NCBI GenBank assembly: GCA_016699305.1
Contig: CP064970.1
Location: 1,034,066 to 1,098,065, forward strand
DNA from: Alphaproteobacteria bacterium
Lineage (GTDB): Bacteria; Pseudomonadota; Alphaproteobacteria; GCA-016699305
Reading direction: 5' to 3'
Length of the DNA stretch: 64,000 nucleotides
Positions 1,629 through 19,017 of this stretch are shown piece by piece. Numbering within the stretch: position 1 is the stretch's first letter; each line of letters opens with the position of its first letter. The notes beneath the pieces are model-generated. The model was not told the origin of the DNA and ran no database searches. It saw only the letters and a list, made by a program, of their open reading frames with translations. The position numbers and the translations under genes were made by a program.

Positions 1629-1653
1629 TGTTCACTTTTTCCAGATTATAGGG

Positions 1654-2652
1654 TTAGGTTGACAGCCAAATAACAATCAATCCTGCAATAACAGCCACAA
1701 CAATTTCTCCGATCCATGAGCATAGTAACGACCATGTGCGGATAATCCAAATGGGTTTAGCAATTTTCGTTGCTACGGAGGTATTAGCGGTAGGTTGGCA
1801 AGGAGGTTCTACCGAGACGCATTGATCGATTGCGGGAAGATCAAGGGATAGGGTTCTCAACCAAGCTACAAACTCTTTTGGTTTTACGCGGCTGGCGTAA
1901 AAGGACTTGATGCGTTCTTCCTCAGCAGCTTTCTGATCGCAATCGAACAGGTGATCGTTAAAGTCGTGCAGTTTCAAGTCTTGTGTACGCTGTGCATCTA
2001 GGATATAGCCCATCAGTCGCTTAACGCGGGGCTTATATCGCAAGAAAGCAATCTTCTTTTCTTCTTTCGTATTGCTTTGATGCCCGAGGACATAAAGCAA
2101 AGCATCCGTCATTTTCCAAAGGGGCTCGGTTATCCGCTGTACAAATGTTTTTTGATCTATCGCAGGAAAATTCAGATTCTCTTCTTTTCGAGAGTGTTGA
2201 GACAGACCGTAGTATTGGATTTGATTTTCTAGTTCGTCATATATCTGCTTAGGAATTTGTATGCCGGTTCGTTCAGCCCAGATAAGAAAGCTTACCGTAT
2301 AAAATTCTGGGGTCTTCTCCTTGTCTTGCTCAAAGGATTCAAAGTCGTAGTCCTTCACATATGCCTCGATTTCGCCTTTCTCTGCGGCCTTTAACGCACC
2401 GGCGAAACAATCCGCAGACTGCTTGTCTTGTCGAATAATCTCTTCTAACTTCTGGAGACCCACTGCCGTCTCACAGTACCTATAAAACAAATCGTTAAGT
2501 TGTTTTGACCTGTGCGCATCGTCGTCAAATTCAAGATGGAGGTACAAAACCAGCGCGGGCAAAGGCAGATGGTCGGGAACGGGAATTTTTCCCGCGCCCT
2601 CTGAAAGAAACCTTTCGATCATTAATTCTCTCATCCCTTCACTTCCCATGTG
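1654..2652 (-). CDS. Hypothetical protein with a C-terminal transmembrane helix (tail-anchored), AT-rich
   Basis: The track ORF is 1654..2712. The likely start is the ATG at 2652 (MSGHMGSEG...). The C-terminus, WIGEIVVAVIAGLIVIWLST, is hydrophobic. The gene is distinctly lower in GC than its neighbours. I recognise no conserved catalytic motif. Confidence 0.55.
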   Translation of the reverse strand, partial: HMGSEGMRELMIERFLSEGAGKIPVPDHLPLPALVLYLHLEFDDDAHRSKQLNDLFYRYCETAVGLQKLEEIIRQDKQSADCFAGALKAAEKGEIEAYVKDYDFESFEQDKEKTPEFYTVSFLIWAERTGIQIPKQIYDELENQIQYYGLSQHSRKEENLNFPAIDQKTFVQRITEPLWKMTDALLYVLGHQSNTKEEKKIAFLRYKPRVKRLMGYILDAQRTQDLKLHDFNDHLFDCDQKAAEEERIKSFYASRVKPKEFVAWLRTLSLDLPAIDQCVSVEPPCQPTANTSVATKIAKPIWIIRTWSLLCSWIGEIVVAVIAGLIVIWLST

Positions 2653-2749
2653 TCCGCTCATTATTCTCCAGCAAAATCCGAAGTTCCAACCGAAGTTCCC
2701 GATCCTTCCCAATCCACGTCAATTCCAGTTTTTGCTTTTTATTAGTCAT
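2639..2749 (-). pseudogene. Diverged duplicate of the methyltransferase 5' end (encodes MTNKKQKLELTWIGKDRELRLELRILLENNERTHGK)
   Basis: The DNA is about 80% identical over roughly 90 bp to the start of the methylase gene at 1540-1628. The peptide is near-identical to the methylase N-terminus, MTKKQKLELTWIGKDQRPRLEPRILLEDD. It overlaps the start of the 352-aa gene in another frame. Confidence 0.6.
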
Positions 2750-3482
2750 TTTTTTGATGATCCAAGTTTTCTGATGGGTAGAGAAGAATGCGAAAATCCC
2801 TGTCGATATTTTTGAAAGCATCTCTCATAGCGGCATATCTTATTTCGTATTCCTGATTATAGGATTTGGCTGGTAGATCTGTTTTTCCCCCTTCACCCAA
2901 CCAAGCATAAACTAAACTCATTGTCTCGATTAAACCCTCTATCGACGACCTTAGCTTATCTCCAATAAATATTTTGTTTGATGTGTAATTTTCATAAAAA
3001 GAGAGCAAGGGTGTTTTGGCATCTTGATGCGCCTTTTCAAGCTTCAGTTTTTGATAGGCATGAAATCTATAACTATATTCCACATTTCTGACTCTGGCCT
3101 TCTCCTCTTCTGAGAATGCTGCCTGTGCCAAAAACTCATTCAATCGTTCTAATGAAACATCCGTGCAATTCTCAATAGGTTTCAGTTGGAGGGTGCGATA
3201 ATAGATTTCTTCGAGCTTGCGCTGCGCCATTGAGAGATCGTTCCAAAGCTTCGGAAGCATGCCGAATTCAATGTCATGAAGTTTTGATAACCGATTAAAG
3301 GTAGAATCTATACGAAGATTGAATTTGCTTTGTTGTTCCTGAAATTTTGCATCAAGCCCCATTTTCCCTAGAACCAAACAAACAAAAATGACAAACACAA
3401 GAATTAGAACAACATAAATGCCATATCTCTGAATTTCTTGATTTATAAAGATTTGAATTATTGGATTAAGCGTCTCCGTCAT
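2742..3482 (-). CDS. Hypothetical protein with an N-terminal transmembrane helix, AT-rich
   Basis: The protein starts MTETLNPIIQIF. A GGAGG ribosome-binding site lies 5 nt upstream. The ATG overlaps the helicase TGA as ATGA. The transmembrane segment is YGIYVVLILVFVIFVCLVLG, followed by a helical soluble part. Confidence 0.6.
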   Translation of the reverse strand: MTETLNPIIQIFINQEIQRYGIYVVLILVFVIFVCLVLGKMGLDAKFQEQQSKFNLRIDSTFNRLSKLHDIEFGMLPKLWNDLSMAQRKLEEIYYRTLQLKPIENCTDVSLERLNEFLAQAAFSEEEKARVRNVEYSYRFHAYQKLKLEKAHQDAKTPLLSFYENYTSNKIFIGDKLRSSIEGLIETMSLVYAWLGEGGKTDLPAKSYNQEYEIRYAAMRDAFKNIDRDFRILLYPSENLDHQKND

Positions 3483-6451
3483 AATAGCCTCCATTCCACA
3501 CAAAACAGCGGCGTCACTTCGTGCCTGCTGTCCTGCAGTTGCCGTTCTAATTGATTAATAAGCTCTTCGCGCCTTGCGTCAATTTTATCTTGGCTCGTGA
3601 AAAGTTCATGTCGTTTTTGGGAGCGGCGTTTTTCGAAGGCGGCTTTTTGTTTTTGGAACGCCAATTTTTCCGCCAAACTAATCAATTGCTTAGATTGACG
3701 GTCGGCCTCGCGGATGTCTCGGTCGAGCTGCTTCAGTTCAATCTCAAGACCGGTCTTCAAGTCCTCGGCCCAACGGTCGAGCTTGTCGAGTTCCTCTTCA
3801 AAATAGCGGTGATTGCTCACTTCCGATTCGTTTAGGAGGGCTGCGACACGCACTGAACGATCAGCTTCCGCCGCATTCTGGTGTGGACAGGTGGAAAATT
3901 CTCCCTCGACCGAGGCCGAAAGCAGGAAGAGCTTCTCGCCAAATTCCTGCGGCAGGATTGCGCCGGTTTCGTCGCAAGTGATGAAGATCAGGGTTTCGGT
4001 TTCTTCGAAGGTTTTGATCGTCAGCTTGTCGAGCCAGAGCCATCCCTGTTTGCCGCGCTGCTCTTCCAGCAACGCAATCTTGTGCGGATAGGAGGAAAGG
4101 TCAAAAAGCAATGTTGCCGAAGGCGTCTCAAGCTCACGCCCCTTTTGAATAACGCGCTCCCCCATAAGATCGGACATGCGATAGGGATACCCCGTCACCG
4201 GAACCTTGGAGGAACCGCGCTTCGGCGTTGCAAGAGGATCGACCGGCTCGGCGGCCTTGGTTTCCAGATAATGATAAATGGGCGTGCGGTCACCATCGCT
4301 TGGCCTTTTCCCACGCGCGATGAAGGCGGCATCGTCGCCGAAGATCAGCTTTTCATCGTTGAAGAAGAACATCCCGTCATAGATGAATTTCGTCAGCTCC
4401 CAGAAATGATGCGTGACGGTGTCGATGCGCTTTTTTGTCGCCTCCATGCTGAACTTCAGATGTTTGGTCACGTCCTCGTCGAAATGCTCGAACAGCATGG
4501 TGCGCGTTTCGGCGATACGGCTTTGGATTGGCTCTTCCATTTCGGATTGAAGTTGCGTGAAGGCTCGTTCAATCTCTTCCGGCCTGCGGCAGGTTTCAAA
4601 AATCTCCAGCACGCGCTTTTCAAAGTCTATGCCGGACTCAACGCGGCCAAGAACCTCATCCGAAGCACCGAAAACGCCGTCGAAAAGCTGAAACTTCTCT
4701 TTTAGCAATTCATAGATGCGCTGATCGGCCAGATTGTCTTTGTTCAGAAAGTTGATGACGACCACATCGTGCTTCTGGCCGTAACGATGGCAACGGCCAA
4801 TGCGTTGCTCGATGCGCTGCGGATTCCAAGGCAGGTCGTAATTGACGATGAGTGAGCAGAACTGGAGATTGATGCCCTCGGCGGCGGCTTCGGTGGCAAT
4901 CATCACCTCGGCATGGTCACGGAAGAAATCGACCAAAGCCATGCGCATATCGACGTTTTTCGATCCCGTAATGCGGCCTGTCTCGGCGTTTTTGTCGAGC
5001 CAAAACGCATAAATGTCTTTGGCAAGATCGTCCGTGTTCTGGCCGTTGAAGGTCACGATTTTGCCGCGATACCCGTTGTCTTCCAGATACTCTTTCAAAT
5101 AACGCTGCGTGCGGCTGGATTCCGTGAAGACAAGAGCTTTGCGCGCACCACCAAGTTCCCCCATGCGAGCGAAGCCGGTTTGCAGCGATGTTAAGAGAGC
5201 CTTGGCTTTGGTTTCTATCTTGATCGAACGTGCTAGGGCTTCGAAACTGTTGATCTGCTCAATCTCGTAATTCAGTTTTTCGATGTCGATGTCTTTATGC
5301 TTGGGTGGGGCGGCTCGTTCTTCTTCCTCGCCATCCTCGGCATATTCGATGTCAATGTCCTGATCGGCTATAAACGCGCCACGCAGGTTCAGTTTTTCTT
5401 CCTTGCGGGTCTCGCGCATTTTCTCAAGGCGTGCTTTGATCGTTTTCAGCGTACCGACAAGCGCGAAGGACGATGAAGCGAGAAGTTTGCGGATGATGAG
5501 GACGACCAGTTTTCTTTGAGCCCACGGAATGGCGTAGGTATCTTGCTGGAGGAGAAAATCGGAAACTTCGTCGTAGAGCCTTTGTTCCTCGACAGATAGT
5601 CTGAACGGCTGTGTTATCGCTTCGCGGCGTGTGTAACGGATATATTCCAAAACCTGCCGCCGTAATGTGCGTTGAACAAACGGTGCGAGACGGGATTTCA
5701 GGTCGTCAATGTTGGGATTGCCGTTGACATACGCCGTTTTGAACGTGTCGATCCCGCCAAAAATCCGGTCGTCGATCAGCGAGGCAAGGCCGTAAAGCTC
5801 CATGAGCGAGTTTTGAAGGGGCGTTGCTGTTAAAAGCACCTTTTTATGATCCGCCAAGGCCGCCTGAATATTGCGGCCCATTTTATTGTCTTTCTTGAAC
5901 AGGTTTCGAAGCTTGTGGGCTTCGTCGATCACCACCAGATGCCACGGCATAGCCTTCATCTGCTCGGCATAGCGATTGGCGAATTGATAGGAAACGATGA
6001 CAACACCCGCAAAATCGAAGGGATCGCCATTTTGGCAACGCTCCGCATAATTGCTGCTTTCCAGTACAAGCGTGGGGAGGTTGAACTTTTCTTCCAGCTC
6101 AATCGACCATTGGCGGCGCAGGACGGCGGGACAAATGACGATGAGTCGCCGCTTATGTTCGGCCCATAGCTGGCAAAGCAAGATGCCGGCCTCAATGGTT
6201 TTGCCGAGGCCGACTTCGTCCGCCAGCATGACCCCCTTGGATAGGGGGGATCGAAGCGCAAAAAGCGCGGCCTCAATCTGGTGCGGATTAAGGTCTACGG
6301 CGGCGTCAAAAAGCGAAGTTGTAAGGCGATCAACAACCGCCGAGGCTTTCTTGGTCGAAATCTCGTGCGCAAAATACTTGGCGTGATAAGGGGTTAGGAC
6401 TGCTTTCGAGCACCTATTTTCTGCCCCAGATTGTTCTTCGTGTGCTCTCAT
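3479..6451 (-). CDS. SNF2-family (SF2) helicase/ATPase, 990 aa
   Basis: Motif I is LADEVGLGKT. Motif II is VVIDEAHKLRN. The SNF2 signature is LLTATPLQNSLMELYGL. Motif VI is QRIGRCHRYGQ. The C-terminal region has a long coiled-coil-like extension. Confidence 0.9.
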   Translation of the reverse strand: MRAHEEQSGAENRCSKAVLTPYHAKYFAHEISTKKASAVVDRLTTSLFDAAVDLNPHQIEAALFALRSPLSKGVMLADEVGLGKTIEAGILLCQLWAEHKRRLIVICPAVLRRQWSIELEEKFNLPTLVLESSNYAERCQNGDPFDFAGVVIVSYQFANRYAEQMKAMPWHLVVIDEAHKLRNLFKKDNKMGRNIQAALADHKKVLLTATPLQNSLMELYGLASLIDDRIFGGIDTFKTAYVNGNPNIDDLKSRLAPFVQRTLRRQVLEYIRYTRREAITQPFRLSVEEQRLYDEVSDFLLQQDTYAIPWAQRKLVVLIIRKLLASSSFALVGTLKTIKARLEKMRETRKEEKLNLRGAFIADQDIDIEYAEDGEEEERAAPPKHKDIDIEKLNYEIEQINSFEALARSIKIETKAKALLTSLQTGFARMGELGGARKALVFTESSRTQRYLKEYLEDNGYRGKIVTFNGQNTDDLAKDIYAFWLDKNAETGRITGSKNVDMRMALVDFFRDHAEVMIATEAAAEGINLQFCSLIVNYDLPWNPQRIEQRIGRCHRYGQKHDVVVINFLNKDNLADQRIYELLKEKFQLFDGVFGASDEVLGRVESGIDFEKRVLEIFETCRRPEEIERAFTQLQSEMEEPIQSRIAETRTMLFEHFDEDVTKHLKFSMEATKKRIDTVTHHFWELTKFIYDGMFFFNDEKLIFGDDAAFIARGKRPSDGDRTPIYHYLETKAAEPVDPLATPKRGSSKVPVTGYPYRMSDLMGERVIQKGRELETPSATLLFDLSSYPHKIALLEEQRGKQGWLWLDKLTIKTFEETETLIFITCDETGAILPQEFGEKLFLLSASVEGEFSTCPHQNAAEADRSVRVAALLNESEVSNHRYFEEELDKLDRWAEDLKTGLEIELKQLDRDIREADRQSKQLISLAEKLAFQKQKAAFEKRRSQKRHELFTSQDKIDARREELINQLERQLQDSRHEVTPLFCVEWRLL

Positions 6452-6570
6452 TCATCCAGTCTCTGATTCGTAAAGCCATCTACCCCTCCAGTTGAGAAAC
6501 CTTAAGCCATAACGACAATAAAGGATAGCCGAATGTTTCTAAAAGCCTTGTCTTTTAGTGAGTTAGATCT

Positions 6571-7002
6571 TCAATCCACCTGTTGTGCCGTCAGGAACAT
6601 TGCCTTTTCAAGGGCGGCGAAAAACTGCTGATAGGGCTGCGGATCCTCGATGGCAGTGATGTTGTACTGGGCGTTGGCGCGGACGATAGTCTGGGGCGTG
6701 CCGCGATCACGGACGCTGACGGTCATGCGCATGGCGTAACCGTTTAATTTTGTTCCACTTACTGTGCCGAGAGTGGCGTCGGCCTTGTCGATCACAAAGC
6801 CCAGATCTTGAAGCGTGGCGATGATGGTGCGCAGGGTCTTGGCCTTGTCGGTCGTGTCGAAGGCCCGGCTTTGCATGCTGCGCAGCGCCACTTGGCTTTC
6901 GGAGGTCTGAAGAACCTGATTACGGCTGTCTGTCTGGCATGCGGTCAGAAGCAAAAGGACCATAAAGGGAACTGCTACGGTCTTGATCGGATGGCGGGAC
7001 AT
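6571..7002 (-). CDS. Lipoprotein (signal peptide, lipobox LLTAC)
   Basis: The N-terminus is MSRHPIKTVAVPFMVLLLLTAC. It is a paralogue of the next gene: both share an LQDLGF motif and a C-terminal YQ(Q/E)FF..L....FLTA motif. Confidence 0.6.
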   Translation of the reverse strand: MSRHPIKTVAVPFMVLLLLTACQTDSRNQVLQTSESQVALRSMQSRAFDTTDKAKTLRTIIATLQDLGFVIDKADATLGTVSGTKLNGYAMRMTVSVRDRGTPQTIVRANAQYNITAIEDPQPYQQFFAALEKAMFLTAQQVD

Positions 7003-7026
7003 TGGCTTTCCTTTTGTTTCAATGCG

Positions 7027-7608
7027 TTAGATTTCGTTGGCCGTCAGGAAGACCGACTGCGAGAGCTTGTCGAAGAACTCCTGGTACAGCTTGGGATCGT
7101 TAAGCGGCTCAGTCGTTGAGACTTGCCCCTGATTGTTCCAAACCACGCGCTGGAAGGTCACACGCGCGGCGGTTTCCTTGTCGGCCACGGGGCGGGTGAT
7201 CAGGCTGACGCGTATTTTCTGCTTCTCGTCATAGATCACGGGCGTGCCGATCATGACCCTCAAGAATATGACGGCGGCGACCTGTCCGGCCTCGGTGGCA
7301 TCCCGATCTTTCGAGCCGACGACCACACCAAGGCCCGTTTCGCTTTCCTCAAGATTGAAGCCCAAATCCTGTAAAACCTGCGCGCCGGCCGACAGGAGCT
7401 TCTTTTCATCCTTGGTCTCGAACCGGCGGGTTTGGGATTGGCGCTGCTGGAGGCTTTCCTGCGTCAACTCCAGTGCCTCCTTGGGCACCGTTTGGGCACA
7501 GGCGGACAGGGACAGCAAAACAACAAGACAGAGGGCAAGTTTGCGCATCATGGCCCCCTTAAAAGCTGGAGGAGCGATAGGCGTAATCACGCACTTTGCC
7601 CGCTTCAT
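7027..7608 (-). CDS. Lipoprotein, paralogue of the 6571..7002 gene (lipobox LSAC)
   Basis: The signal peptide is MMRKLALCLVVLLSLSAC. The true start is probably the internal Met near 7551. Confidence 0.6.
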   Translation of the reverse strand: MKRAKCVITPIAPPAFKGAMMRKLALCLVVLLSLSACAQTVPKEALELTQESLQQRQSQTRRFETKDEKKLLSAGAQVLQDLGFNLEESETGLGVVVGSKDRDATEAGQVAAVIFLRVMIGTPVIYDEKQKIRVSLITRPVADKETAARVTFQRVVWNNQGQVSTTEPLNDPKLYQEFFDKLSQSVFLTANEI

Positions 7609-8008
7609 CGAATTTCACGATAATGGTGAGTGTCCGTTGGGTCGTGCTGGAAGCGCCCGAACCGCTGCTCATACCGCCGCCAAGGCCGCCCAGCAGCCCC
7701 GCGCCGCCCGTTGCGCCAGCTCCGCCAAACACCAGCCCGAGGCCGCCGGAGGACGTGGAATAGACCTTTTCGGTCGAAATCTTGTCATAGACCCAGCTTT
7801 CCCGGCGGTTTTCATCGGTCGTCACCATGTTCGGGGATCCCAGTACCTCGACGACTTCTGCCGACGTCATGCCCTTGTGAAGCTCCCGCTGGGCGGCAGC
7901 GACCGTCAGGCGGCCCTTGTCTTGGTTGGAAACGTCAGCGCGGTGATCTTGGGCGGAAGCGCAGGCTGCCAATGGCAGGAGTAAGGCGCATAGCAAAACT
8001 TTGTTCAT
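7559..8008 (-). CDS. Small lipoprotein with a BamE/SmpA-OmlA-like fold and a glycine-zipper segment
   Basis: The lipobox is LPLAAC. The segment LTVAAAQRELHKGMTSAEVVEVLGSPNMV resembles the SmpA/OmlA fold. A Gly-rich stretch (GGLGLVFGGAGATGGAGLLGGLGGG) follows. Confidence 0.5.
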   Translation of the reverse strand: MNKVLLCALLLPLAACASAQDHRADVSNQDKGRLTVAAAQRELHKGMTSAEVVEVLGSPNMVTTDENRRESWVYDKISTEKVYSTSSGGLGLVFGGAGATGGAGLLGGLGGGMSSGSGASSTTQRTLTIIVKFDEAGKVRDYAYRSSSF

Positions 8009-8145
8009 GGTGTTCTCCAGCGGGTCAAAGAAATCTTTCGAATTGTCTTATCACGCTGATGTGCCAATTCCGGTCACATTGCCCCTTGGCGGGCCGAGGT
8101 TTTTTGTGGCAGAGTAACAGCGAGAGCAAAACGGAAGCCATTCCC

Positions 8146-9135
8146 ATGCGATTTGAAAAAGCCGAAGACTTGCTGAACCTTGCCTTTGCCATGCAATCGA
8201 GCGCCGATGGCGTTTCGCTGGCCGACATTGAGCAGATGTTCGAGGTTTCGCGCCGGACAGCCATGCGCATGTGGGACGCCGTGGTGCGGGTTTATCCGCA
8301 GACGGAGGAGAAGACCGATGCCTGCCGTATCAAGCGCTGGCGCATTCCTTCTGCGACAAATGGGCGACATTTGGCCCTGACGCCCGACGAACTGGCGACC
8401 CTCGACATGGCCGCCAAGGCCTTTAACGGGCGCGGGCTGCGCCTTCAGGCCAAAGCACTGCGCTCCCTGTGCGGCAAGATCAAAAGTTTTCAGAAGTGCG
8501 AAGCATCACGCCGGATTGAGCCAGACCTTGAGGCTTTGATTGAGGCCGAAGGCCTAGCTGCACGTCCAGGCCCGCGGCCCAAGATCAAGGTCGAGCATCT
8601 TCATGCCCTACGCGAAGCGATCAAGGCCTGCCAGATCGTCGAGATTCTCTATCGTGGCAAGGGAAAGAAAGAGGCTGAGGTCAAACGGGTTGCACCTTAT
8701 GGGTTCCTCTACGGCCACCGGCATTATCTCGTCGGCGGCGGCACGGAGAAGGGGCGCGAAACCTCTCGCTACCACTTCATCCTTTCGCAGATCGAAGATG
8801 TCACCATCACAAAGCAGGGCTTCCGCCGCGATCCTGCCTTCAACATTCAAAGCTATGCCGAGGAATCCTTTGGCATCTGGAAGGAAAAGCCTGTCGAAGT
8901 CGTTTGGAAATTCACGCCGCGCGCCGCTGAGGCCGCCCGTGATTTCGTGTTCCATCCAAGCCAAAAAATCAGCGAAGGCAAAGACGGCTCCATGACCGTT
9001 CGCTTCAAGGCAGGCGGCATGCTGGAAATGGCTTGGCATCTCTATATGTGGGGCGATCAGGTCGAAGTCGTCAAACCCGCCGCGCTGCGCAAAATGGTAA
9101 ACAGTCACGCGCGGAAGTGGGAAGGCTTGCCCTAG
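8146..9135 (+). CDS. HTH-WYL-WCX transcriptional regulator (BrxR/CapW/YafY-like)
   Basis: The start ATG is at 8146, with a GGAAG ribosome-binding site. The N-terminus is a wHTH (SLADIEQMFEVSRRTAMRMWDAV). The central region resembles a WYL domain (RYHFILSQIEDVTI). The C-terminal extension is about 100 aa. The 5' part of the track ORF is antisense junk. Confidence 0.7.
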   Translation: MRFEKAEDLLNLAFAMQSSADGVSLADIEQMFEVSRRTAMRMWDAVVRVYPQTEEKTDACRIKRWRIPSATNGRHLALTPDELATLDMAAKAFNGRGLRLQAKALRSLCGKIKSFQKCEASRRIEPDLEALIEAEGLAARPGPRPKIKVEHLHALREAIKACQIVEILYRGKGKKEAEVKRVAPYGFLYGHRHYLVGGGTEKGRETSRYHFILSQIEDVTITKQGFRRDPAFNIQSYAEESFGIWKEKPVEVVWKFTPRAAEAARDFVFHPSQKISEGKDGSMTVRFKAGGMLEMAWHLYMWGDQVEVVKPAALRKMVNSHARKWEGLP

Positions 9136-9156
9136 GTGATCGTAAACGAGGTTTAA

Positions 9157-10062
9157 ATGTGTAACGCCTATAATCATCCATCATACTGTACCTGTGGTTG
9201 GGGTGGATGGACTTCTTTTGCCCGCCCATCAGATAAGGCCGGCAACGCCGCTGTAAATTTTTGGCGGTCTGCGTGGTCTTCGGGCCGGTTGGCAAGATAC
9301 GAAACTTACACATGCCCCAATTACACTTGCTGGATATGCGGTGCCAAGGTGTTCTTCTATCACTCTCCTTTCGGCGGGCGCGTTTTCTTTGACGAACTTG
9401 GGCCGCCTTGGCCTCGCCATGCTTGTTTCGCAAAAACCGATTCCGCTTTTATCAAAGCCCCAGAGCCATCTGGCTATATTCTTCCAAGCGCAGCCCCTGC
9501 CTTTTGTCCCGCCGCCTGGAGTCGAGACGGATGGGATCCAATCGAAATTATCTCGTCCGCTCTTAGTGACAAGAAAGAGGATCAAGATTTTTATATGCTA
9601 GAAGTGCGCCGCGTCGCTGCGGCAGAGGGAACCTTGTGTCTAGGCGCGCACCTCAAGAAAAACATTGCGCGCGATACGCCTGTTTTTCTTAGAGAAACAG
9701 ATATGATTGGCGTTTATGAAATCGATTATCTTGACGCCGAAAACCTAAACGGTTCCGGCGAGCGTCTCAAAGCCTATCAAAACGCGAATAGCGCGGCGGC
9801 TTATGAATATTGGCAGTTGGCAACCCTGGATAATGATCCCAAAGCGCAGAACTATGTCGCTATGCTTTTGCTTTTTTACACGCCTTTCAGATTTCTTAAA
9901 GGCGTTTCCGTTGATGACGCTCCGTCTATCATGGAGGCCAGATATTGGCTTGAAAAGGCAGCTAGCGGAAACGCCATTGAGGCTGTTTGTAATTTGAAAA
10001 GGCTCAATGAAAGACAAATGGAAGGGAAACCGTTCTTCCGCTCGGAATATCAGTTGGATTGA
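9157..10062 (+). CDS. Hypothetical protein: N-terminal Cys-rich (putative Zn-ribbon) region plus C-terminal Sel1/TPR-like repeats
   Basis: Cysteine clusters are C-x9-C-x-C and CPNYTCWICGAK...RHAC. The C-terminal repeats have the AAYEYWQLA...YWLEKAASGNAIEA pattern. The gene starts 22 bp after the WYL regulator stop, so it is probably co-transcribed. Confidence 0.5.
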   Translation: MCNAYNHPSYCTCGWGGWTSFARPSDKAGNAAVNFWRSAWSSGRLARYETYTCPNYTCWICGAKVFFYHSPFGGRVFFDELGPPWPRHACFAKTDSAFIKAPEPSGYILPSAAPAFCPAAWSRDGWDPIEIISSALSDKKEDQDFYMLEVRRVAAAEGTLCLGAHLKKNIARDTPVFLRETDMIGVYEIDYLDAENLNGSGERLKAYQNANSAAAYEYWQLATLDNDPKAQNYVAMLLLFYTPFRFLKGVSVDDAPSIMEARYWLEKAASGNAIEAVCNLKRLNERQMEGKPFFRSEYQLD

Positions 10063-10341
10063 GCCTGCTATGGGAGGGGCGAACAACCGCTCTTGGGCCC
10101 ACGTCATTAAGGGGTAAGGTTGATAAAAGGTTTCTCTATCGTTTTCATCCAACCGCGCCCGATCTTTTGGTCGCAATATACGGTAAACAACATCTTTATT
10201 AAGGTTCAATTCTTGCCCCTGAATTAACGCAAAGGTAAGGAAGTATGCGGCAATATCCCCTTGGGTAAGTGCGTCCTTTTGGTGAAACGGGCGGCGCTTG
10301 CCGCGTGGGGAAAACGTTTCGTTTCAAGCGATTGGGCGGGG

Positions 10342-13300
10342 ATGACCGAGGGCACCAAAACACAGCTGAACAAACCATGGTTGCTTGCGACTACGGCGCT
10401 GTGCAGCCTCGTGGTGTTTGCGGCGCAGGCGGCAACCCCCGCACCCAGAACGCTGCCGCAAGGCGGATCAGTCGTCGCCGGAAACGCAGGCATCAGCACG
10501 TCCGGCGCAAACATGACCGTGAACCAGAGCAGCAGCTCGGCGGTTATCAACTGGAACAAGTTCGACGTTGGGTCACAGGCGAAGGTGCAGTTTAATCAGC
10601 CTGACGCGTCCTCGCGCACGCTGAACCGTGTTTTGTCGAGCGACCCGTCACAGATTTACGGGCAAGTGACGGCGAACGGTCAGCTTTATTTTGTGAACCC
10701 CAACGGCGTGATCGTCGGGCAGGGGGCAAGGATCGAGGCGGGCTCCATCACCGCGACCACGATGGACATCGGCAACGATGCCTTCATGGCGGGAGCGAAT
10801 AGCTTCAGCCGAGGCTCGGCCACAGGCGAGATCGTCAACCAAGGAACGCTTGCCGCCGCGCCTAAAGGTTATGTCGCGCTGATCGGCGCAAAGGTTACAA
10901 ACAAAGGCACCATCACCGCCCCGCAAGGCCAAGTGGCTATGGCGGCAGGGGACAAGGTCACCTTGCCCGTCACAGGCAGCGGCCTGATCGGCATCGAAGT
11001 TGATGCGGCCTCTGTTCAAACGGCTATCACGAATGAAGGCACGATCACCGCGCCTGATGGCAGTGTCTATATCAAAGCCGAAACCGCCAGCAGCCTTGGT
11101 GCGCAGATTGTCAACAAGGGCACGATCACGGCCAAGAATGTGGCCATGCAATCGGCCAGTGGCAGCGTGACAACCTCGGCGGCCAGCGTAATCGCTGCTG
11201 ATAATGTAACCGCGCGCGCTAAAGTCTTGGATATTGATGGCTCTGTTCGGACCTTTGGCGATACGGCGCAAATTGGGCTTTATGCTGGGTATCTGAGCCT
11301 GCGCGGAAGTCTAGAGGCTCAAAACGCAAACGGAACCGGCGGCGCGATTGAAGCCGTCGGCACGCAAGAAACCAACCTGTTTGGTGCAAAGCTGACCGCC
11401 AGCGGCATGAATGGCGGCGGGACGATCAAGATCGGCGGAGATGCGCAGGGCAGCGGCACGTTGCAACGTTCGGCGCAGACGACGGTTGATAAAGCGACAA
11501 CACTCAAAGCCAGCGCATTGGCGACAGGCGATGGCGGGACGGTGATTGTCTGGTCGGACGGTAAGACCAGCTTCGCCGGTTCGATCGAAGCCACGTCCGC
11601 AACTGGTAAAGGCGGCAACGCCGAAGTGTCCGGTAAGGTGAAGCTCAGCTATCAAGGCTATGCCGACCTGCGGGGCGCGAGCGGGACGGCGGGCACATTG
11701 CTGCTCGATCCAACAGACTTTACGGTCGCGGCCTCAGGCGGTGACATGACCGGCGCGGCGTTGTCGGCGCAGCTCGAAGGCGCGAACGTGACGTTGCTTT
11801 CCAGTAATGGCAGCAGCGGTACAGCAGGAAATATCAATATCAACGACACGGTATCGTGGAGCTCTGCGTTCGGCCTTACGCTTAGCGCGGCTGCGGACAT
11901 CAATATCAATGCCGCGATTACGACAAGCACAGGCTTGTTGACGCTGACAACGGGCAGCGCAAGCTATAGTACTTATGTAAATGCAAACGTCACAGCGAAC
12001 AGAATCGTATCGACCTATGACACGATTCTGGTTAAGGCTGAAACAGCAACAGTCGAATTAACGGGCAGTAGTCCAGCTTTGACGATCGCGGGAACCAGCT
12101 ATACGTTGATCAACAATCTCTCTAGCTGCAACTCAATGACATTGTCAGGAGCTTATGCTCTCAACGCCAATATCGGAACAGCAACGGTTCCGATTGGATC
12201 CAGCGCAACGCCTTTTACCGGAAAGATCAATGGCCTTGGCCACACGGTTACAGTCAACATAACGGCCAGCGGCGATAATACAGGTTTGTTTGGATATGCT
12301 TCGCTTGCCTCGATCAAGAATATAGGTGTGAGCGGCAGCGTGTCGGCGACAACGACAAGTTACACGGGTGCTCTTGTCGGGTATAGTGTGAATAGTACGA
12401 TTTTGAACAGCTGGTCGACGGCAACCGTTCACGGGCAGAATTACGTTGGCGGGCTTGTCGGCCAGAACACGGCCAATACCAGTAAAACCGCGTCAATCAT
12501 CATGAGCTATGCCAAGGGCGCGGTGACGTCAGAAACGGGCAGCTATTATGTTGGCGGGTTGGTCGGCGAAAATCTGGGAACAGCCAGCGGCAGCAGTGCT
12601 GTTGTAACATCAAGCTACGCCATCGGAGCCGTCACGGGCACAAACTATGTAGGCGGCTTGATCGGTTATAATTACAGCAATACCAGTGGTACGGCACCAA
12701 TTACATCCAGCTATGCGACAGGGAATGTTACTGCTGACTATTATGCCGGTGGTCTTATCGGCTATAACTATGGGCAGTCCAGCGGTAACGCTTCGATCAA
12801 TTCCAGCTATGCGACAGGGGCGGTCGGCAGTGCCGCAGCGCAATATGCCGGCGGTCTTATCGGGTGGAATAATACAAACAACGGTACGGCTTCGATCGAG
12901 CTTAGCTATGCGACGGGCGCGGTGCAGGGGGCGTATTATCTTGGCGGTCTTGTCGGGTATAATTATGGGAATAGCAGCGGTACGGCTTCGATCGCGAATA
13001 GCTATGCAACGGGTTCCGTCACAGGCGATGCTGGCGGACAGGCAACAGGCGGTCTTGTCGGCTGGAATAAAATCAACAGCGGTACTGCGCCGATAACGGC
13101 CAGTTATGCCGTCGGCGCGGTTAGTGGCGGGACCTATGTAGGCGGATTGACGGGCTTGAATAGTGGCACGGTGACCAGCAGCTATTGGGACACGCAAACA
13201 ACAGGACAGGCGACAAGCACAAGCGGTACAGGCATGACAACGGCCCAGCTTAAGTCAGCTTTGCCGTCGGGATTTAGTGCGGCCGTTTGGCGTATATCCG

Positions 13301-15798
13301 CCGGAACATCCTATCCTGACTTGTTGTGGAAAGGGATTCCGCAACAAGTGATTTCCGGTACGATCGGCAGCGTGCTTGCAGGGCAAACGATCCAGCTTGT
13401 CCTGAATGGTGCGGTTCTGGGGTCGGCACTAACAAACGCAAGCGGCGCGTTTACAATTAGCGTCAGTTCGGGCGCGGTTGGAGCCGGATCGTCCGTATTG
13501 CTCTATGCCGATAACAGCAGCTTTACTGGAACATATGTGGGTGTCGGGACAGGCGGCGATATGACGGGGCTGGCGCTTGGTTCAGGCGGGGTGAAGGTGA
13601 CGGGCGCTGCGGCGACGGCGCTGGACGTGACGGCTTTGATGAAAAGCGCGGTTGGCGGTTTGACGGATAGTGATATTCTTTATACGACGGCAAGCTCCAG
13701 TGTCACGGTTGGTGGCAACTTGGCGGTGACGGCATTTGGCGTGGTCAGCCAGACAGATGCCTTGATTGTATCGGGAACGACCAGCGTTTCCGCGACGGGC
13801 TCTGCTCTGGCTTTCACGAACGCGGCGAACAGTCTGACCGGAACGGTAAGCGTTGCGGCAGCACAGTCTATTTCGATCACGAACAATCGCGCGACCTCTT
13901 TGGGCGCAATAACGGCCAGCGGCGATATCCTTGTTCGCGCGAACGGATCGATTGCGATCGAGAGTGGATCGGTTCTGACGTCGAGTGCTGGCGGAATTGA
14001 TCTTGTGGCTTCCGGCGATCATTTCATAAATAACGGAACAGGTGCGGCGTTGTCCGCAGCGACAAGCTGGCATATCTATACGGCAAGCCCGACGGGCAAT
14101 ACGCTTGATGGTTTGAGTTATAATTACAGTCAATATGGCGCTTCTTATGGCGACACGTTGCTTGGAACCGGAAACGGTCTGATTTATGCGTCCAGTTTGG
14201 CCACAACGCAGGTTAGTGTAACGGGGGCAATAAGCAAGGTTTATGACGCGGCGGACACTGCGACAGTCGGGCTTGCAGACGTTGCTCTGACGACGACGGG
14301 GTTGAGCGGGGCGACTTATACTTACTCGGTTGGCGCGGCCTCGTATGACAGCAAAAATGTAGGAACGGGCAAAACGGTTACAGCGGCGGTTACGCTGACG
14401 GGAATTACAGAGGCGACCGGACAGGCCGTGTACGGATTTACATCCAGCCTGTCAGGTAGTGGCGCGGTTGGTGAGATCACAGCCAAAACCCTGACTGTGA
14501 CTGGCACAACGGTTTCTGGCAAGGTATATAACGGCGACACGGTGGCGACGGTGAATGTCGGCAGTGCGGCGCTGGCTGGGGTTGTCGGCGTGGATGCGGT
14601 GAGCCTCGGGACGGGCAGTGCGGTTGGGGCGTTTGCGGATAAGAATGTTGGAACGGGCAAGAGCGTCACAGCTAGCGGGTTCACCATCACGGGCACGGAT
14701 GCGGGGAACTATACGCTGGCCCAGCCGACGGGGCTGAGCGCGGACGTCACAGCGAAGACAATCACCGTAACGGGCGTGATGGCTGCTACAAAAACCTATG
14801 ACACGACCGCGGCGGCGAGCCTGAATGTGGGAAGCGCGACCTTATCCGGCGTCTATGGGAGCGATGTTGTGGGGCTGGATGCGTCTGGTGCGAGTGGGGT
14901 GTTTGCGGATAAAAATGTAGGCACAGGAAAAGGCGTTACAGTTACGGCTTTGGCTTTGAATGGGGCGGATGCCGGCAATTATGTGTTGACGCAGCCCACC
15001 GGCGTTCAAGGCACGATTAACAAAGCAAACCTAACGGTCACGGGCGTAACGGCAGGCGACAAAGTCTATGACGGATCCTTGGCAACCAGCGTGGATGCGA
15101 CGGGGGCCGTCTTGTCAGGTGTTTTGGGCACGGACGCGGTTTCCTTGATTACGATCGGCGCAAGCGCGGCGTTTGCCGATAAGAATGCGGGAACGAACAA
15201 GAGCGTCAATGTCTATGGCCTGGCGTTAACGGGCGTAGATGCCGCGAATTACGATGTCGCGACCATCGGCGTTGTTGCAGATATTTCGCGTAAGGACCTA
15301 ACCTATCAAGTGGCGAATGCCACGACGAATAAGGGTCAGATTCAGCTGGGGGCCGTCACCTTTTCCGGGTTGGTTGGGGGAGACTCGGTTGGTGCTGTTA
15401 GTGAACTGGTCGATGCAGGTGGAAATGTTGTTTCGGTCAGCGCGTCTATACCGGCTGGGACCTATACGCAACGCGTGGCTTCGCTGACGGGGGGGCATGC
15501 TGCAAATTACCATTTGCAACAGACCGGAAGCACGTTTGGAACGCTTGTTGTTGGTCATGCCGTACATTCGGTCTCAGACGAAAAGCTCAACATGATGAAT
15601 CTTTTGGGCATGTGGTATGATAAAGAACGTAAAACACAAGAGAAACCGTATGACCTGCAAGGCTTGCAGGTGCAGGAGTTCTTGTTGGAAAAAGGGCGGC
15701 AGATAGAGCTGATCCGTATCCCAAACGGGCCTAAAGGAAAGAAAATTAGAATCCAAAAGCTCGCGCAAAACACTTCCAGCCGAGCGTCTGCTCAATAA
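10342..15798 (+). CDS. Filamentous haemagglutinin-like two-partner-secretion exoprotein (TpsA) with GLUG-like and YDG/MBG-like repeats
   Basis: The TPS domain motifs are present: NQSSSSAVINWNKFDVG, and NPNGV in QLYFVNPNGVIVGQG. A long pectate-lyase-like Gly/Thr-rich shaft follows. There are about 12 (Y)YVGGL(I/V)GxN repeats and five ~90-aa repeats of the TAKT(L/I)TVTG...KVYDG...GNY type. The track start is a TTG at 10261. The ATG at 10342 precedes an extended signal peptide. Confidence 0.85.
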   Translation: MTEGTKTQLNKPWLLATTALCSLVVFAAQAATPAPRTLPQGGSVVAGNAGISTSGANMTVNQSSSSAVINWNKFDVGSQAKVQFNQPDASSRTLNRVLSSDPSQIYGQVTANGQLYFVNPNGVIVGQGARIEAGSITATTMDIGNDAFMAGANSFSRGSATGEIVNQGTLAAAPKGYVALIGAKVTNKGTITAPQGQVAMAAGDKVTLPVTGSGLIGIEVDAASVQTAITNEGTITAPDGSVYIKAETASSLGAQIVNKGTITAKNVAMQSASGSVTTSAASVIAADNVTARAKVLDIDGSVRTFGDTAQIGLYAGYLSLRGSLEAQNANGTGGAIEAVGTQETNLFGAKLTASGMNGGGTIKIGGDAQGSGTLQRSAQTTVDKATTLKASALATGDGGTVIVWSDGKTSFAGSIEATSATGKGGNAEVSGKVKLSYQGYADLRGASGTAGTLLLDPTDFTVAASGGDMTGAALSAQLEGANVTLLSSNGSSGTAGNININDTVSWSSAFGLTLSAAADININAAITTSTGLLTLTTGSASYSTYVNANVTANRIVSTYDTILVKAETATVELTGSSPALTIAGTSYTLINNLSSCNSMTLSGAYALNANIGTATVPIGSSATPFTGKINGLGHTVTVNITASGDNTGLFGYASLASIKNIGVSGSVSATTTSYTGALVGYSVNSTILNSWSTATVHGQNYVGGLVGQNTANTSKTASIIMSYAKGAVTSETGSYYVGGLVGENLGTASGSSAVVTSSYAIGAVTGTNYVGGLIGYNYSNTSGTAPITSSYATGNVTADYYAGGLIGYNYGQSSGNASINSSYATGAVGSAAAQYAGGLIGWNNTNNGTASIELSYATGAVQGAYYLGGLVGYNYGNSSGTASIANSYATGSVTGDAGGQATGGLVGWNKINSGTAPITASYAVGAVSGGTYVGGLTGLNSGTVTSSYWDTQTTGQATSTSGTGMTTAQLKSALPSGFSAAVWRISAGTSYPDLLWKGIPQQVISGTIGSVLAGQTIQLVLNGAVLGSALTNASGAFTISVSSGAVGAGSSVLLYADNSSFTGTYVGVGTGGDMTGLALGSGGVKVTGAAATALDVTALMKSAVGGLTDSDILYTTASSSVTVGGNLAVTAFGVVSQTDALIVSGTTSVSATGSALAFTNAANSLTGTVSVAAAQSISITNNRATSLGAITASGDILVRANGSIAIESGSVLTSSAGGIDLVASGDHFINNGTGAALSAATSWHIYTASPTGNTLDGLSYNYSQYGASYGDTLLGTGNGLIYASSLATTQVSVTGAISKVYDAADTATVGLADVALTTTGLSGATYTYSVGAASYDSKNVGTGKTVTAAVTLTGITEATGQAVYGFTSSLSGSGAVGEITAKTLTVTGTTVSGKVYNGDTVATVNVGSAALAGVVGVDAVSLGTGSAVGAFADKNVGTGKSVTASGFTITGTDAGNYTLAQPTGLSADVTAKTITVTGVMAATKTYDTTAAASLNVGSATLSGVYGSDVVGLDASGASGVFADKNVGTGKGVTVTALALNGADAGNYVLTQPTGVQGTINKANLTVTGVTAGDKVYDGSLATSVDATGAVLSGVLGTDAVSLITIGASAAFADKNAGTNKSVNVYGLALTGVDAANYDVATIGVVADISRKDLTYQVANATTNKGQIQLGAVTFSGLVGGDSVGAVSELVDAGGNVVSVSASIPAGTYTQRVASLTGGHAANYHLQQTGSTFGTLVVGHAVHSVSDEKLNMMNLLGMWYDKERKTQEKPYDLQGLQVQEFLLEKGRQIELIRIPNGPKGKKIRIQKLAQNTSSRASAQ

Positions 15799-15821
15799 TA
15801 AAAGTACCGATTTTTATACTT

Positions 15822-16885
15822 CGCAGATTCAACTAGCCAGCGCATAAAAGTGGGAGCGTAAAGCTGATAACCTCTTGGCAAGCAAGAGGTTAAGCATGGC
15901 AAACTATCGAAGGCTGACGGCGGAAGACCGATGTCAGATATACGCCCTGAACAAGCAGGGCAGCACGCAGCAACAGATTGCCGACCATCTGGGCGTCAGC
16001 CAGAGCGCGGTCAGCCGAGAACTCGAGCGGAACAGCGGAGGCCGAGGCTATCGGTTCAAGCAAGCGCAAGAAAAAGCTTCGGCGCGGCAGGCGGTGCGGT
16101 CCAGGCCGCGCAAGCTGACGAAGGGCTTGCGGCGGCGGATCGAGACCAAGCTGCGTACGGCCCGTTGGTCGCCGGAACAGGTCAGCGGCTGGCTCGCCGA
16201 ACAAGGCGTATCGCTCAGCCATGAACGCATCTATCAGATGATCTGGCAGGACAAGCGCGAGGGCGGCGAGCTCTGGAAGACCCTGAGGCGGCGCGGCAAG
16301 CGGTATAACAAACGCGCGGGAAAGACGGCAGGAAGAGGTCTGATTCCCAATAGAATCGACATATCAGAGCGTCCCACCGTGGTGGAGCACAAGAGCCGCG
16401 TGGGCGATTGGGAAGGCGATACGGTCGTGAGCGCGGGCCACAAAGGCGGCCTTCTGACACTTGTCGAGCGCAAAACGAAGCTGACAAAAATCGCCAAACT
16501 GCCACGCGCCACAGCAGTGGCCACACGCAAGGCAACCGTGCGCAAGCTCGCCGCCATCAGCGAGCGCGTCCACACGATCACTTTCGACAACGGCAAAGAG
16601 TTTGCCGATCACCAGAACATGGCTTCTGCCTTGGGCGCGGACATCTTCTTTGCCAAGCCCTATCACGCTTGGGAACGCGGTCTGAATGAGAACACCAACG
16701 GCCTGATCCGCGACTTCTTCCCAAAGGGTACGGACTTCTCTACAATCACCTCCGCCGAGGTTGCCAAGGTCGAACGTCTCCTTAACGATCGCCCGCGCAA
16801 GTCTCTCGGTTTCAAGTCACCAAAAGAGGTTTTTCTAGCCGCCGCGGCCCCGTAGAATTTTATGCGCTGGCTAGTTGAATCTGCG
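15822..16885 (+). mobile_element. IS30-family insertion sequence, intact
   Basis: Perfect 28-bp terminal inverted repeats, cgcagattcaactagccagcgcataaaa, lie at 15822-15849 and, as the reverse complement, at 16858-16885. They flank a single transposase ORF. Confidence 0.85.
15896..16855 (+). CDS. IS30-family transposase (HTH + DDE)
   Basis: The start ATG is at 15896, with an AAGAGG ribosome-binding site. The N-terminal HTH is QQQIADHLGVSQSAVSRELERN. The catalytic core resembles the DDE family (WEGDTV...FDNGKEF...NENTNGLIR). Confidence 0.85.
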   Translation: MANYRRLTAEDRCQIYALNKQGSTQQQIADHLGVSQSAVSRELERNSGGRGYRFKQAQEKASARQAVRSRPRKLTKGLRRRIETKLRTARWSPEQVSGWLAEQGVSLSHERIYQMIWQDKREGGELWKTLRRRGKRYNKRAGKTAGRGLIPNRIDISERPTVVEHKSRVGDWEGDTVVSAGHKGGLLTLVERKTKLTKIAKLPRATAVATRKATVRKLAAISERVHTITFDNGKEFADHQNMASALGADIFFAKPYHAWERGLNENTNGLIRDFFPKGTDFSTITSAEVAKVERLLNDRPRKSLGFKSPKEVFLAAAAP

Positions 16886-16957
16886 CTTTGTTAAGTGTGC
16901 GCGCTCCAGATTTACGCGAAAAATTCAGCCCTTCACAAAGACCCAAGGAGAAAGCCC

Positions 16958-17626
16958 ATGGTGCGTTTCGCCGGAATTTTGAAAAAGGTTATGCCGCTTG
17001 CTTTGATCGGCGCGATGGCCTTGGCTTCGGCGGCGCAGGCCAGCGAAGTGGACGGTTTCCGCTCGGCGCGTTTTGGGCAAAAGGAAAAAGAAGTGATCGC
17101 TGCGGCGGCCAAGGATCTGGGCGTGAAGGCCGATGCGATCAAGACAACGAAGGACGATTCTCTGAAAGTCACAGTTCTCTCCGCCAAGCTGCCGCGCTTC
17201 GCACCGGTTGAAACAGCCGCGACGGTTAATTATGTGATGGGCTATCAATGCAACTGTCTGATGCAGGTCAGCGTGTCGTGGGATCTTCCCGAAGGCAAGG
17301 ATGTCGAATCCCGCAAAACCGCGATGCGCGGCGTTGGCGCGTTGGTTGGCAAGTTCCAAGCGCAGAAGTGGGGCAAGGATGAAACGGTTGTGAACCGTCT
17401 GCCCGGCGAAGCGAAGGAAGGCGAAGAAAGCACGATCATCTTCTTTCGTGGCCAGAACAAGGACGGCGGCGCGATCACGCTCGCGGGCGCTCCGGTCAAG
17501 ATGGAAAAGGGCAAGGCAGGCGAAGGCTTGGTTGCCAATATCGACAACATCAAGGGCGTTTCGTTGATCTATGAAAAGGACGTCGCGAAGCCCGACATTT
17601 ACCGCGTGGATGTCAGCGGCTTCTAA
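16958..17626 (+). CDS. Secreted hypothetical protein
   Basis: An AAGGAG ribosome-binding site precedes the start. The signal peptide is MVRFAGILKKVMPLALIGAMALASAAQA. There are no recognisable motifs. Confidence 0.5.
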   Translation: MVRFAGILKKVMPLALIGAMALASAAQASEVDGFRSARFGQKEKEVIAAAAKDLGVKADAIKTTKDDSLKVTVLSAKLPRFAPVETAATVNYVMGYQCNCLMQVSVSWDLPEGKDVESRKTAMRGVGALVGKFQAQKWGKDETVVNRLPGEAKEGEESTIIFFRGQNKDGGAITLAGAPVKMEKGKAGEGLVANIDNIKGVSLIYEKDVAKPDIYRVDVSGF

Positions 17627-17688
17627 TCTGTTGACGTAAAAACCATCGTGAACGATCGCTGTGAAAAGCCGTATCGACCTAGGTTGCG

Positions 17689-18813: not shown

Positions 18814-19017
18814 GAGTTATAAATCCCGTTATTATAGCTCACAATATAGCTTAAATGTGAGCTATAAGTCCAGTTCTTTATGCCTCACGAAAACCCCCTT
18901 GAAGCCATCTTAAAAGAGAAAAAGGGTTTCAAACTGGCAGTATGGATCAAAAACTTATTTGTATATAGATCAGTGGGTTAGAAAATATAGAACAAAACAA
19001 AATCGTTTATAATAGAC

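Follow-up and report, generated by a model that had tools for sequence, protein, structure and literature searches.

Regulators carrying a WYL domain are well known at the head of bacterial defence systems, and in the EcoprrI locus an accessory gene inside a type I restriction-modification (R-M) operon encodes the anticodon nuclease PrrC. To our knowledge, work on the WYL regulator DriD has so far concerned its part as a chromosomal DNA-damage regulator of Caulobacter. DriD is a transcription activator of an SOS-independent damage response that is itself activated by single-stranded DNA (ssDNA) (PMC9186387; PMC10853764), with a regulon covering a division inhibitor and a nuclease (PMC9186387). 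Its box, ATACGAC-N7-GTCGTAT, is read through Arg37, Glu40 and Arg41 of the recognition helix (PMC10853764). Here we describe a locus in a 64,000-nucleotide stretch of DNA from an alphaproteobacterium (contig CP064970.1 of assembly GCA_016699305.1, positions 1,034,066 to 1,098,065; hereafter the window), in which a gene for a 329-amino-acid (aa) WYL regulator is followed by a gene for a 301-aa protein of a family without a name. By sequence, the regulator is a full-length homologue of DriD with a shifted operator, and the gene behind it, which we call the cargo gene, lies in a slot whose content differs between close relatives.

Results

The regulator gene (8146-9135, plus strand) and the cargo gene (9157-10062, plus strand) are both real open reading frames (ORFs), as the initial annotation of the window had described; NCBI labels the first of exactly these two proteins 'WYL domain-containing protein' and the second 'sel1 repeat family protein'. 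In a phmmer search of all PDB chains, the sole matches to the regulator were to DriD of C. crescentus (8tp8/8tpk/9pfq; E 5e-59), covering residues 1-322 of 329. A profile built from 54 homologues matched DriD at 2e-84, PafB/PafC at 3e-6 and the BrxR structures 7t8k and 7qfz at 0.054 and 0.24, so that DriD stands about 78 orders of magnitude ahead of the next WYL protein. The similarity to PafB/PafC is partial, being confined to the WYL or WCX regions (E 3e-6 to 2e-4), and no other WYL regulator, CapW-like proteins included, was returned at E<=1 in this profile search; CapW structures exist in the PDB. The BrxR-specific Pfam domains PF26109 and PF26107 had no match in the regulator at E<=0.01 but are both present in the regulator of another locus, L002, and no CBASS-type genes flank the regulator in the window. 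The initial annotation had called the regulator BrxR/CapW-type, and this label is wrong. It had also set out what would argue against a defence role, namely a regulator that groups with PafBC-type SOS regulators and is followed by a known repair factor; the regulator does fall in the DNA-damage branch of WYL proteins, but the gene behind it encodes no known repair factor.

The domain order of the regulator is winged helix-turn-helix (wHTH), three-helix linker, WYL (Pfam, residues 150-220) and WCX (Pfam, residues 249-324), and residues 1-135 align without large gaps to the wHTH and three-helix part of DriD. In the recognition helix, R37 and R41, the two main base-reading arginines, are invariant in the 54 homologues, and at least 90% of these have Met at position 40 in place of the Glu of DriD. 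Most of the residues with which DriD contacts ssDNA are unchanged in the phmmer alignment (Y168 to Y169, Y192 to Y194) or conservatively replaced (R178 to K180, K202 to R204, W206 to F211); DriD S172 corresponds to K174. More than 1,100 homologues of the regulator were found at E<1e-20, nearly all of them 328-329 aa long.

The 137-bp intergenic region that separates the regulator from divergent lipoprotein genes holds a DriD-type operator variant at 8059-8079 (no strand assigned), ATGTGCCAATTCCGGTCACAT, which divides as ATGTGCC-AATTCCG-GTCACAT with the core TGNC-N7-GNCA. This box lies 66 nt upstream of the regulator ATG and 50 nt from the ATG of the divergent lipoprotein gene. Among the upstream regions of 76 regulator homologues from metagenomes, from which a position weight matrix (PWM) was derived, the core TGNC-N7-GNCA was present in 59, with about 3 expected by chance, and the operator consensus of the subfamily in these regions is GTGTGNCAGAATCGGTCACAT. 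When the 64 kb were scanned with the PWM, 8059-8079 was the only strong match (24.4, with the next best at 11.5). The box beside Caulobacter driD, TTGCGACAGAAACGGTCGTAT, has the same 21-bp architecture and a nearly identical spacer, and the shift amounts to one base per half-site, from CGNC/GNCG to TGNC/GNCA. This base change fits the replacement of E40 by M, with which it may be paired. The strict Caulobacter box CGNC-N7-GNCG is absent from the region upstream of the regulator (8009-8145), and counts of TACGAC-N7-GTCGTA (with up to three mismatches) and of CGNC-N7-GNCG were not above those in shuffled sequence.

Strong second DriD-like boxes occur within a few kb of the regulator in L178 (4654-4674, PWM 22.7) and L180 (12594-12614, PWM 21.0). 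The second box of L180 precedes a 45-aa ORF and an RNase_H_2/SF1-helicase gene, and a similar helicase adjoins the regulator in L095. The second boxes, together with the helicase shared with L095, suggest that DriD-like regulators may control several nearby island genes.

Just downstream of the window box, the element TTGGC-N16-GTGGCA is kept in L179 and L180 despite otherwise diverged intergenic regions, and in more distant relatives extended -10-like GTGnTAnnnT motifs lie at a fixed distance in the direction of the regulator gene. These conserved elements suggest a promoter pointing at the regulator gene. The three lipoprotein genes on the minus strand (6571-8008; 143, 193 and 149 aa, the last BamE-like by Pfam), which diverge from the regulator and are syntenic with it in L094, L178 and L181, are an alternative or additional candidate target of the operator. 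At 8084-8099, between the operator and the regulator start codon, CCTTGGCGGGCCGAGG with TTTTTTG behind it forms a terminator-like hairpin; it was considered as an attenuator and rejected, in that it overlaps the conserved TTGGC but its pairing is not kept in L179 and L180. A conserved protein that measures about 460 aa and has no Pfam match is encoded divergently from the regulator in 31 of the 80 DriD-like loci, with the operator between both genes (loci L097-L158; for instance L101 78-1541 and L098 2473-3852, both on the minus strand). By analogy, it may be the counterpart of the Caulobacter CCNA_03891/CCNA_01149 operon.

The spacer between the regulator and the cargo gene measures 21 bp (9136-9156, plus strand), one base less than the 22 bp first reported, and contains a GAGG ribosome-binding site at 9148-9151. 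No terminator-like site is present in 9136-9156, a gap that is too short to hold one, and Rfam and repeat scans of 6400-10400 returned no matches. Because of this short spacing, the ribosome-binding site of the cargo gene itself and the absence of a terminator, we infer that the cargo gene is probably co-transcribed, and so co-expressed, with the regulator. On the minus strand, a 154-aa ORF (9745-10209) overlaps the 3' end of the cargo gene antisense; its segment 10063-10209 resembles part of a genuine protein, perhaps a gene remnant that dates from the insertion.

The content of the position behind the regulator is variable. In every close relative, DNA similarity to the window breaks off at 9125-9139, within about ten bases of the regulator stop codon, and only L001, at 93.5% nucleotide identity, has the same arrangement as the window. 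In L181, whose regulator falls in the same 90% cluster, the downstream genes are GmrSD, a 71-aa gene, a 403-aa gene and an integrase, and lipoproteins and BrxC/PglY lie upstream. The regulator of L178 (94% identity) is followed by RmuC and a SAP-domain protein, that of L179 (86%) by a 403-aa gene without assignment, with Mrr/ResIII and two methylases divergent from it, and that of L180 (78%) by a DUF4238 gene, with the SNF2 helicase and methylase of the window itself on the divergent side. L094 (81%) has no cargo, and a convergent 423-aa gene, which from its sequence we take to be proS, stands downstream. In distant relatives, a co-oriented and tightly spaced downstream gene is present in 30 of the 67 loci with enough sequence; these genes are highly varied and rich in nucleases, with PD-(D/E)XK nucleases, a NERD-UvrD helicase, metallophosphatases, ARPP-1 and a nucleotide cyclase among them. 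The GC content at third codon positions is 0.48 in the cargo gene, 0.685 in the regulator and 0.70-0.74 in the lipoprotein genes. The break in similarity at the end of the regulator, the variation of the slot and this compositional contrast mark the cargo gene as a recent, horizontal and compositionally foreign acquisition.

The 301-aa protein contains exactly the motif YTCPNYTCWICGAKVFFYHSPFGGRVFFDELGPPWPRHAC that the initial annotation had read as part of an N-terminal cysteine cluster. This cluster is not a product of chance, as C58, C61, H88 and C90 are invariant across 121-150 homologues and a more N-terminal site, C2/H7/C11/C13, is likewise conserved. From these conserved ligands, a CHCC zinc knuckle is predicted at residues 2-17 and a CCHC zinc ribbon at residues 53-90; they are followed by a conserved W121/W126/P128 motif (residues 121-128), a beta domain in the AlphaFold2 (AF2) model (residues 126-208) and a degenerate Sel1-like helical repeat of four predicted helices (residues 213-289). 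The conserved N-terminal part of the family reads MCNAWNHxxxCTCGWGG ... YxSYxNPNAxCPVCGAxVFFYQSPxGGRVFFDELGPPWPKHPC..TDN ... WxxxGWxP. At the first site, 310 sequences have the N-terminal Cys with Gly16, 28 lack that Cys and have Cys16 instead, and none is mixed. The ligands thus imply two four-ligand metal sites per protein, and loss of the N-terminal Cys, being always paired with Cys16, points to a structural metal site rather than a catalytic cysteine. A role of the N-terminal Cys as catalytic nucleophile in the style of SRAP or Ntn-hydrolases was considered and rejected on the same 310:28:0 swap.

The AF2 predicted local distance difference test score of the 301-aa protein is 76; AF2 models give 75-84 for the zinc-ribbon-like hairpin and more than 90 for the beta domain that comes after it. 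The barrel of a minimal family member resembles Mop/TOBE/OB folds (Foldseek probability 0.99, TM 0.54 over 55 residues, E 0.13). No solved structure matches the 301-aa protein by sequence, and Pfam, NCBIfam, PADLOC-DB v2 (E<=0.01) and PHROG returned no match to it. Sel1 (PF08238) reaches E 0.15 in this protein, at 13.1 bits against a gathering cut-off of 30.7, whereas the full-length homologues P0003, P0036, P0045 and P0051 score 38-53 bits (E 1e-9 to 4e-14). The Sel1/TPR-like C-terminus proposed earlier is supported by the repeats of homologues, by the helices at 213-289 and by the NCBI name, but is weak in the protein itself. The zinc sites and the OB-like barrel, with fusions in the family to cold-shock, T5orf172 and lysine-rich tails, hint that the 301-aa protein may bind nucleic acid.

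The family is large and widespread. It numbers 333 homologues in a word-seeded search, 2,226 with an N-terminal profile and 2,831 clusters at 50% identity, distributed over Proteobacteria, Bacteroidota, Actinobacteria, Verrucomicrobia, Planctomycetota and cyanobacteria, all without a name. The C-terminal tails differ, with Sel1 repeats in the subgroup of the query and DUF349, a CobT-type VWA domain, a cold-shock domain, T5orf172 or a lysine-rich tail elsewhere. The family is rare on plasmids (34 of 72,556), and phage contigs carry it hardly at all (2 loci in IMG/VR). In a subgroup on conjugative plasmids of Serratia, Raoultella and Yersinia (H7-H25, Serratia pADAP-like), similarity begins only at residue 45; the second zinc ribbon and the barrel are present and the first zinc knuckle is missing.

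The family has no fixed partner, as all-against-all clustering found no neighbour gene in more than 7 of about 84 loci, and the small ORFs directly upstream of family genes have no Pfam match and no mutual similarity. Around family genes, those that recur most often encode type I R-M subunits, SNF2/UvrD helicases, integrases, KwaB and WYL regulators. In L177 the family gene lies inside a type I R-M operon (HsdR, HsdS, a 201-aa gene, DUF5655, the family gene, HsdM) and in L023 directly after HsdR. Elsewhere it adjoins a Gabija-like ATPase and UvrD pair with TerB (L173), T5orf172 and YobI-ATPase genes (L175), DrmA/B/C-like genes (L009, Pseudomonas chlororaphis), or a true BrxR with DUF499, DUF3780 and DUF1156 (L002). 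An HsdR-type gene is found within five genes in 8 of about 80 family loci, which from the general frequency of type I R-M systems we estimate to be tens of times above expectation. A WYL-WCX regulator adjoins the family gene in 7 of about 84 loci (about 8%), a linkage that is recurrent though not usual. Besides the window, regulators of the DriD-like subfamily adjoin a family gene in Kordiimonas L073, where the two are convergent, and in Roseicyclus L086, where the family gene comes first, and other WYL-WCX regulators do so in Polynucleobacter and a Comamonadaceae genome. In L073, two adjacent DriD-like boxes in opposite orientation (7619-7673) lie in an 87-bp intergenic region, flanked by a minus-strand operon (1,137-aa, 165-aa and SNF2 genes) on one side and a small membrane ORF with the family gene on the other, and this region looks as if it were bidirectionally regulated. 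DriD-like boxes upstream of family genes were confined to L073 and the lineage of the window; the remaining 78 genome loci gave none. A larger conserved module of helicase, regulator and family gene was considered and rejected, as the helicase of L073 shares only generic SNF2 similarity.

Upstream of the lipoprotein genes, the minus-strand operon at 1-6451 was initially described as a helicase/methylase operon, and this holds. It comprises a DrmD-like SNF2 helicase (3479-6451; PADLOC DrmD, 3.7e-208), a DPPY DNA methylase ORF recognised from sequence (about 1630 to 1, running off the left window edge), and a 352-aa gene (1654-2712) and a 253-aa gene that both have no PADLOC or Pfam match. DISARM class 1 joins the DrmD helicase and a DrmMI methylase to DrmA, DrmB and DrmC; in the window the DrmD model is matched and a DPPY methylase is present, the two genes between them are without match, and the operon exceeds the window. 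The same helicase and methylase (79-91% nucleotide identity) are directly divergent from the DriD-like gene in L180, where different genes, including a SocA_Panacea gene, lie between them. A 60-aa minus-strand ORF (2639-2821) repeats the N-terminal sequence of the methylase (MTNKKQKLELTWIGKD...), and this duplication suggests that the 352-aa gene may have been inserted into or beside the methylase gene. The proposal that this end of the window is a defence island is well supported: the DrmD operon lies upstream, the slots of sister loci hold GmrSD, RmuC with a SAP-domain protein, DUF4238 and the 403-aa gene, an integrase and BrxC/PglY are found nearby, and homologues of the cargo gene share this habitat. 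Downstream of the cargo gene, 10261-21416 is accessory DNA, and GC content stays low until about 32 kb. As read from translation only, this segment encodes a 1,845-aa exoprotein that resembles an adhesin of the two-partner-secretion type and has GLUG-like repeats; transposases of the IS30 type (15875-16855) and the IS5 type (19079-19924), between which lies a Fic-like protein (17689-18813); and, at 20517-21416, a protein resembling class A beta-lactamases.

Discussion

We consider it about an even chance that the 301-aa gene is acquired defence-island cargo, co-transcribed with a DriD-like, ssDNA-sensing regulator at a defence-island hot spot. When ssDNA arises from DNA damage or from the replication of a phage, the regulator would bind the box at 8059-8079 and alter how the regulator-cargo unit, the divergent lipoprotein unit, or both are transcribed. 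In the cargo protein, the zinc module and the beta-barrel would bind nucleic acid and the Sel1-like tail a protein partner, and the protein may serve phage defence or damage tolerance as a stand-alone accessory.

Several observations weigh against this reading. The family gene was found in 0 of 80 DriD-like loci, and the regulator-effector operon proposed in the initial annotation therefore holds as a WYL regulator directly before an uncharacterised gene, but not as a conserved two-gene system. Most family members have no WYL neighbour, some lie in ordinary contexts (as in Methylomicrobium), and the enrichment in defence islands was assessed on about 90 loci, with no formal background for comparison. 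The rarity of the family on phage contigs fits a cellular gene and is uninformative on activity. The fold matches are statistically non-significant, and the 301-aa protein has no recognisable catalytic domain and no supported function. In Caulobacter, what the box beside driD activates is the divergent CCNA_03891/CCNA_01149 operon rather than driD itself, and damage leaves the level of DriD unchanged (PMC13004042), a precedent on which the cargo may be constitutively expressed with the regulator. Asymmetry of the spacer was tried as a predictor of direction and rejected; it fits three Caulobacter promoters but gives opposite answers at the secondary boxes of L178 and L180, and with this contradiction the regulated direction is not readable from the sequence. 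Induction of the cargo by ssDNA is plausible, and the Caulobacter precedent cuts against it.

The same features can be read differently, as a locus for the response to DNA damage, in which the 301-aa protein would be an effector with a role like that of DidA or BapE, binding ssDNA or damaged DNA in repair and having no anti-phage role. A regulator that is a DriD homologue, a Caulobacter regulon with a division inhibitor and a nuclease (PMC9186387), and an OB-like barrel with zinc sites would all suit such an effector, as would the L073 locus, where DriD-like boxes precede the small membrane ORF and the family gene, and the nuclease-rich cargo downstream of related regulators, RmuC among them. 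We nevertheless think it unlikely, given that the gene is accessory and recently acquired, that the commonest neighbours of the family are R-M genes, integrases and known defence genes and not repair genes, and that the 78 further genome loci lack a DriD-like box upstream of the family gene. If, instead, the 3' flank of the regulator is simply a recombination hot spot, the cargo could be selfish or neutral with a function unrelated to ssDNA sensing, for example as a Sel1-type protein adaptor, and the adjacency would be incidental. Such a view accounts for the different downstream gene, or none, in every close relative, for the 0 of 80 loci, and for the giant adhesin, IS30, IS5 and beta-lactamase that come after the cargo in the window. 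It is about equally unlikely, given three independent adjacencies of DriD-like and family genes in three gene orders (the window, L073 and L086), where far fewer than one would be expected from a single-copy regulator and about 25 alphaproteobacterial loci; WYL-WCX regulators also adjoin family genes in Polynucleobacter and Comamonadaceae, and the 21-bp spacing, ribosome-binding site and lack of a terminator argue for co-expression.

That the regulator is instead a BrxR/CapW-type repressor heading a dedicated two-gene defence operon, and silences a toxic effector until infection, seems to us very improbable. The wHTH-WYL-WCX architecture is common to CapW, the setting is a defence island, a true BrxR does adjoin a family member in L002, and CapW-type repressors are reported also to sense ssDNA (PMC11662680). 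However, the regulator lacks the BrxR-specific Pfam domains that the L002 regulator has, the PDB profile separates DriD (2e-84) from BrxR (0.05-0.24) and returns no CapW-like protein at E<=1, the pair is not a conserved operon, and the characterised relative is an activator (PMC9186387).

Returning to acquired defence-island cargo under a DriD-like regulator, a more far-reaching version joins two proposals: that DriD-like regulators with TGNC-N7-GNCA operators are the alphaproteobacterial counterpart of BrxR/CapW, acting as ssDNA-sensing hubs that activate whichever cargo is adjacent (GmrSD, RmuC, PD-(D/E)XK nucleases, DISARM-like operons or the gene described here), and that the double-zinc/beta-barrel family is a new stand-alone defence effector or sensor of phage nucleic acid. 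Taken jointly, these are doubtful. If true, an SOS-independent DNA-damage regulator would be tied directly to anti-phage immunity, and if DriD-type regulators control the slot genes, ssDNA sensing would be a common trigger of repair and immunity. A search of the literature turned up no relevant account of such a system; the new elements are the DriD family in the part of a defence-heading regulator, with a shifted operator, together with an undescribed cargo family. The subfamily operator consensus and the putative pairing of E40 to M with the half-site base are directly testable handles, and a large family with no database name, two predicted, well-supported metal sites and a consistent defence-island habitat is a reasonable candidate for functional screens.

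Comparison with known systems places the two proteins differently. The 301-aa protein shares with Sel1-repeat (SLR/TPR-like) adaptors a C-terminal stretch of 80 residues predicted to form helical hairpins, but the part that defines its family is the N-terminal double zinc module and beta-barrel, and Sel1 is one of several alternative tails. Like R-M accessory genes of the PrrC type, family members stand between hsdS and hsdM (L177) or after hsdR (L023), co-oriented and with overlaps or short gaps; they differ in having no similarity to PrrC, RloC or PADLOC entries and no recognisable nuclease or NTPase domain, and the gene in the window is attached to a regulator and not to an R-M operon. With BrxR/CapW of BREX, CBASS and other systems, the locus has in common a WYL regulator immediately upstream of variable defence genes, and a WCX domain and ssDNA sensing are features of CapW too; the concept of one regulator serving many swappable systems fits the slot. 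There is, however, no significant sequence relationship, and BrxR/CapW repress, whereas the nearest characterised relative of the regulator activates. That relative, C. crescentus DriD (CCNA_01151; PDB 8TP8, 8TPK and 9PFQ), is matched in length (327 aa, against 329 aa here), in full-length alignment, in the order of wHTH, three-helix bundle, WYL and WCX, and in R37 and R41, and both regulators have a 21-bp pseudo-palindrome with a 7-nt A/T-rich spacer (consensus AGAAWCG in the subfamily described here, AGAAACG at Caulobacter driD) in their own divergent intergenic region. Unlike Caulobacter DriD, with its CGNC/GNCG half-sites and a box 10 nt from the ATG, the subfamily described here has TGNC/GNCA half-sites and a near-invariant replacement of E40 by M, its box in the window lies 66 nt from the ATG, and a regulator that in Caulobacter serves a fixed chromosomal regulon appears here as the hub of an exchangeable defence-island slot.

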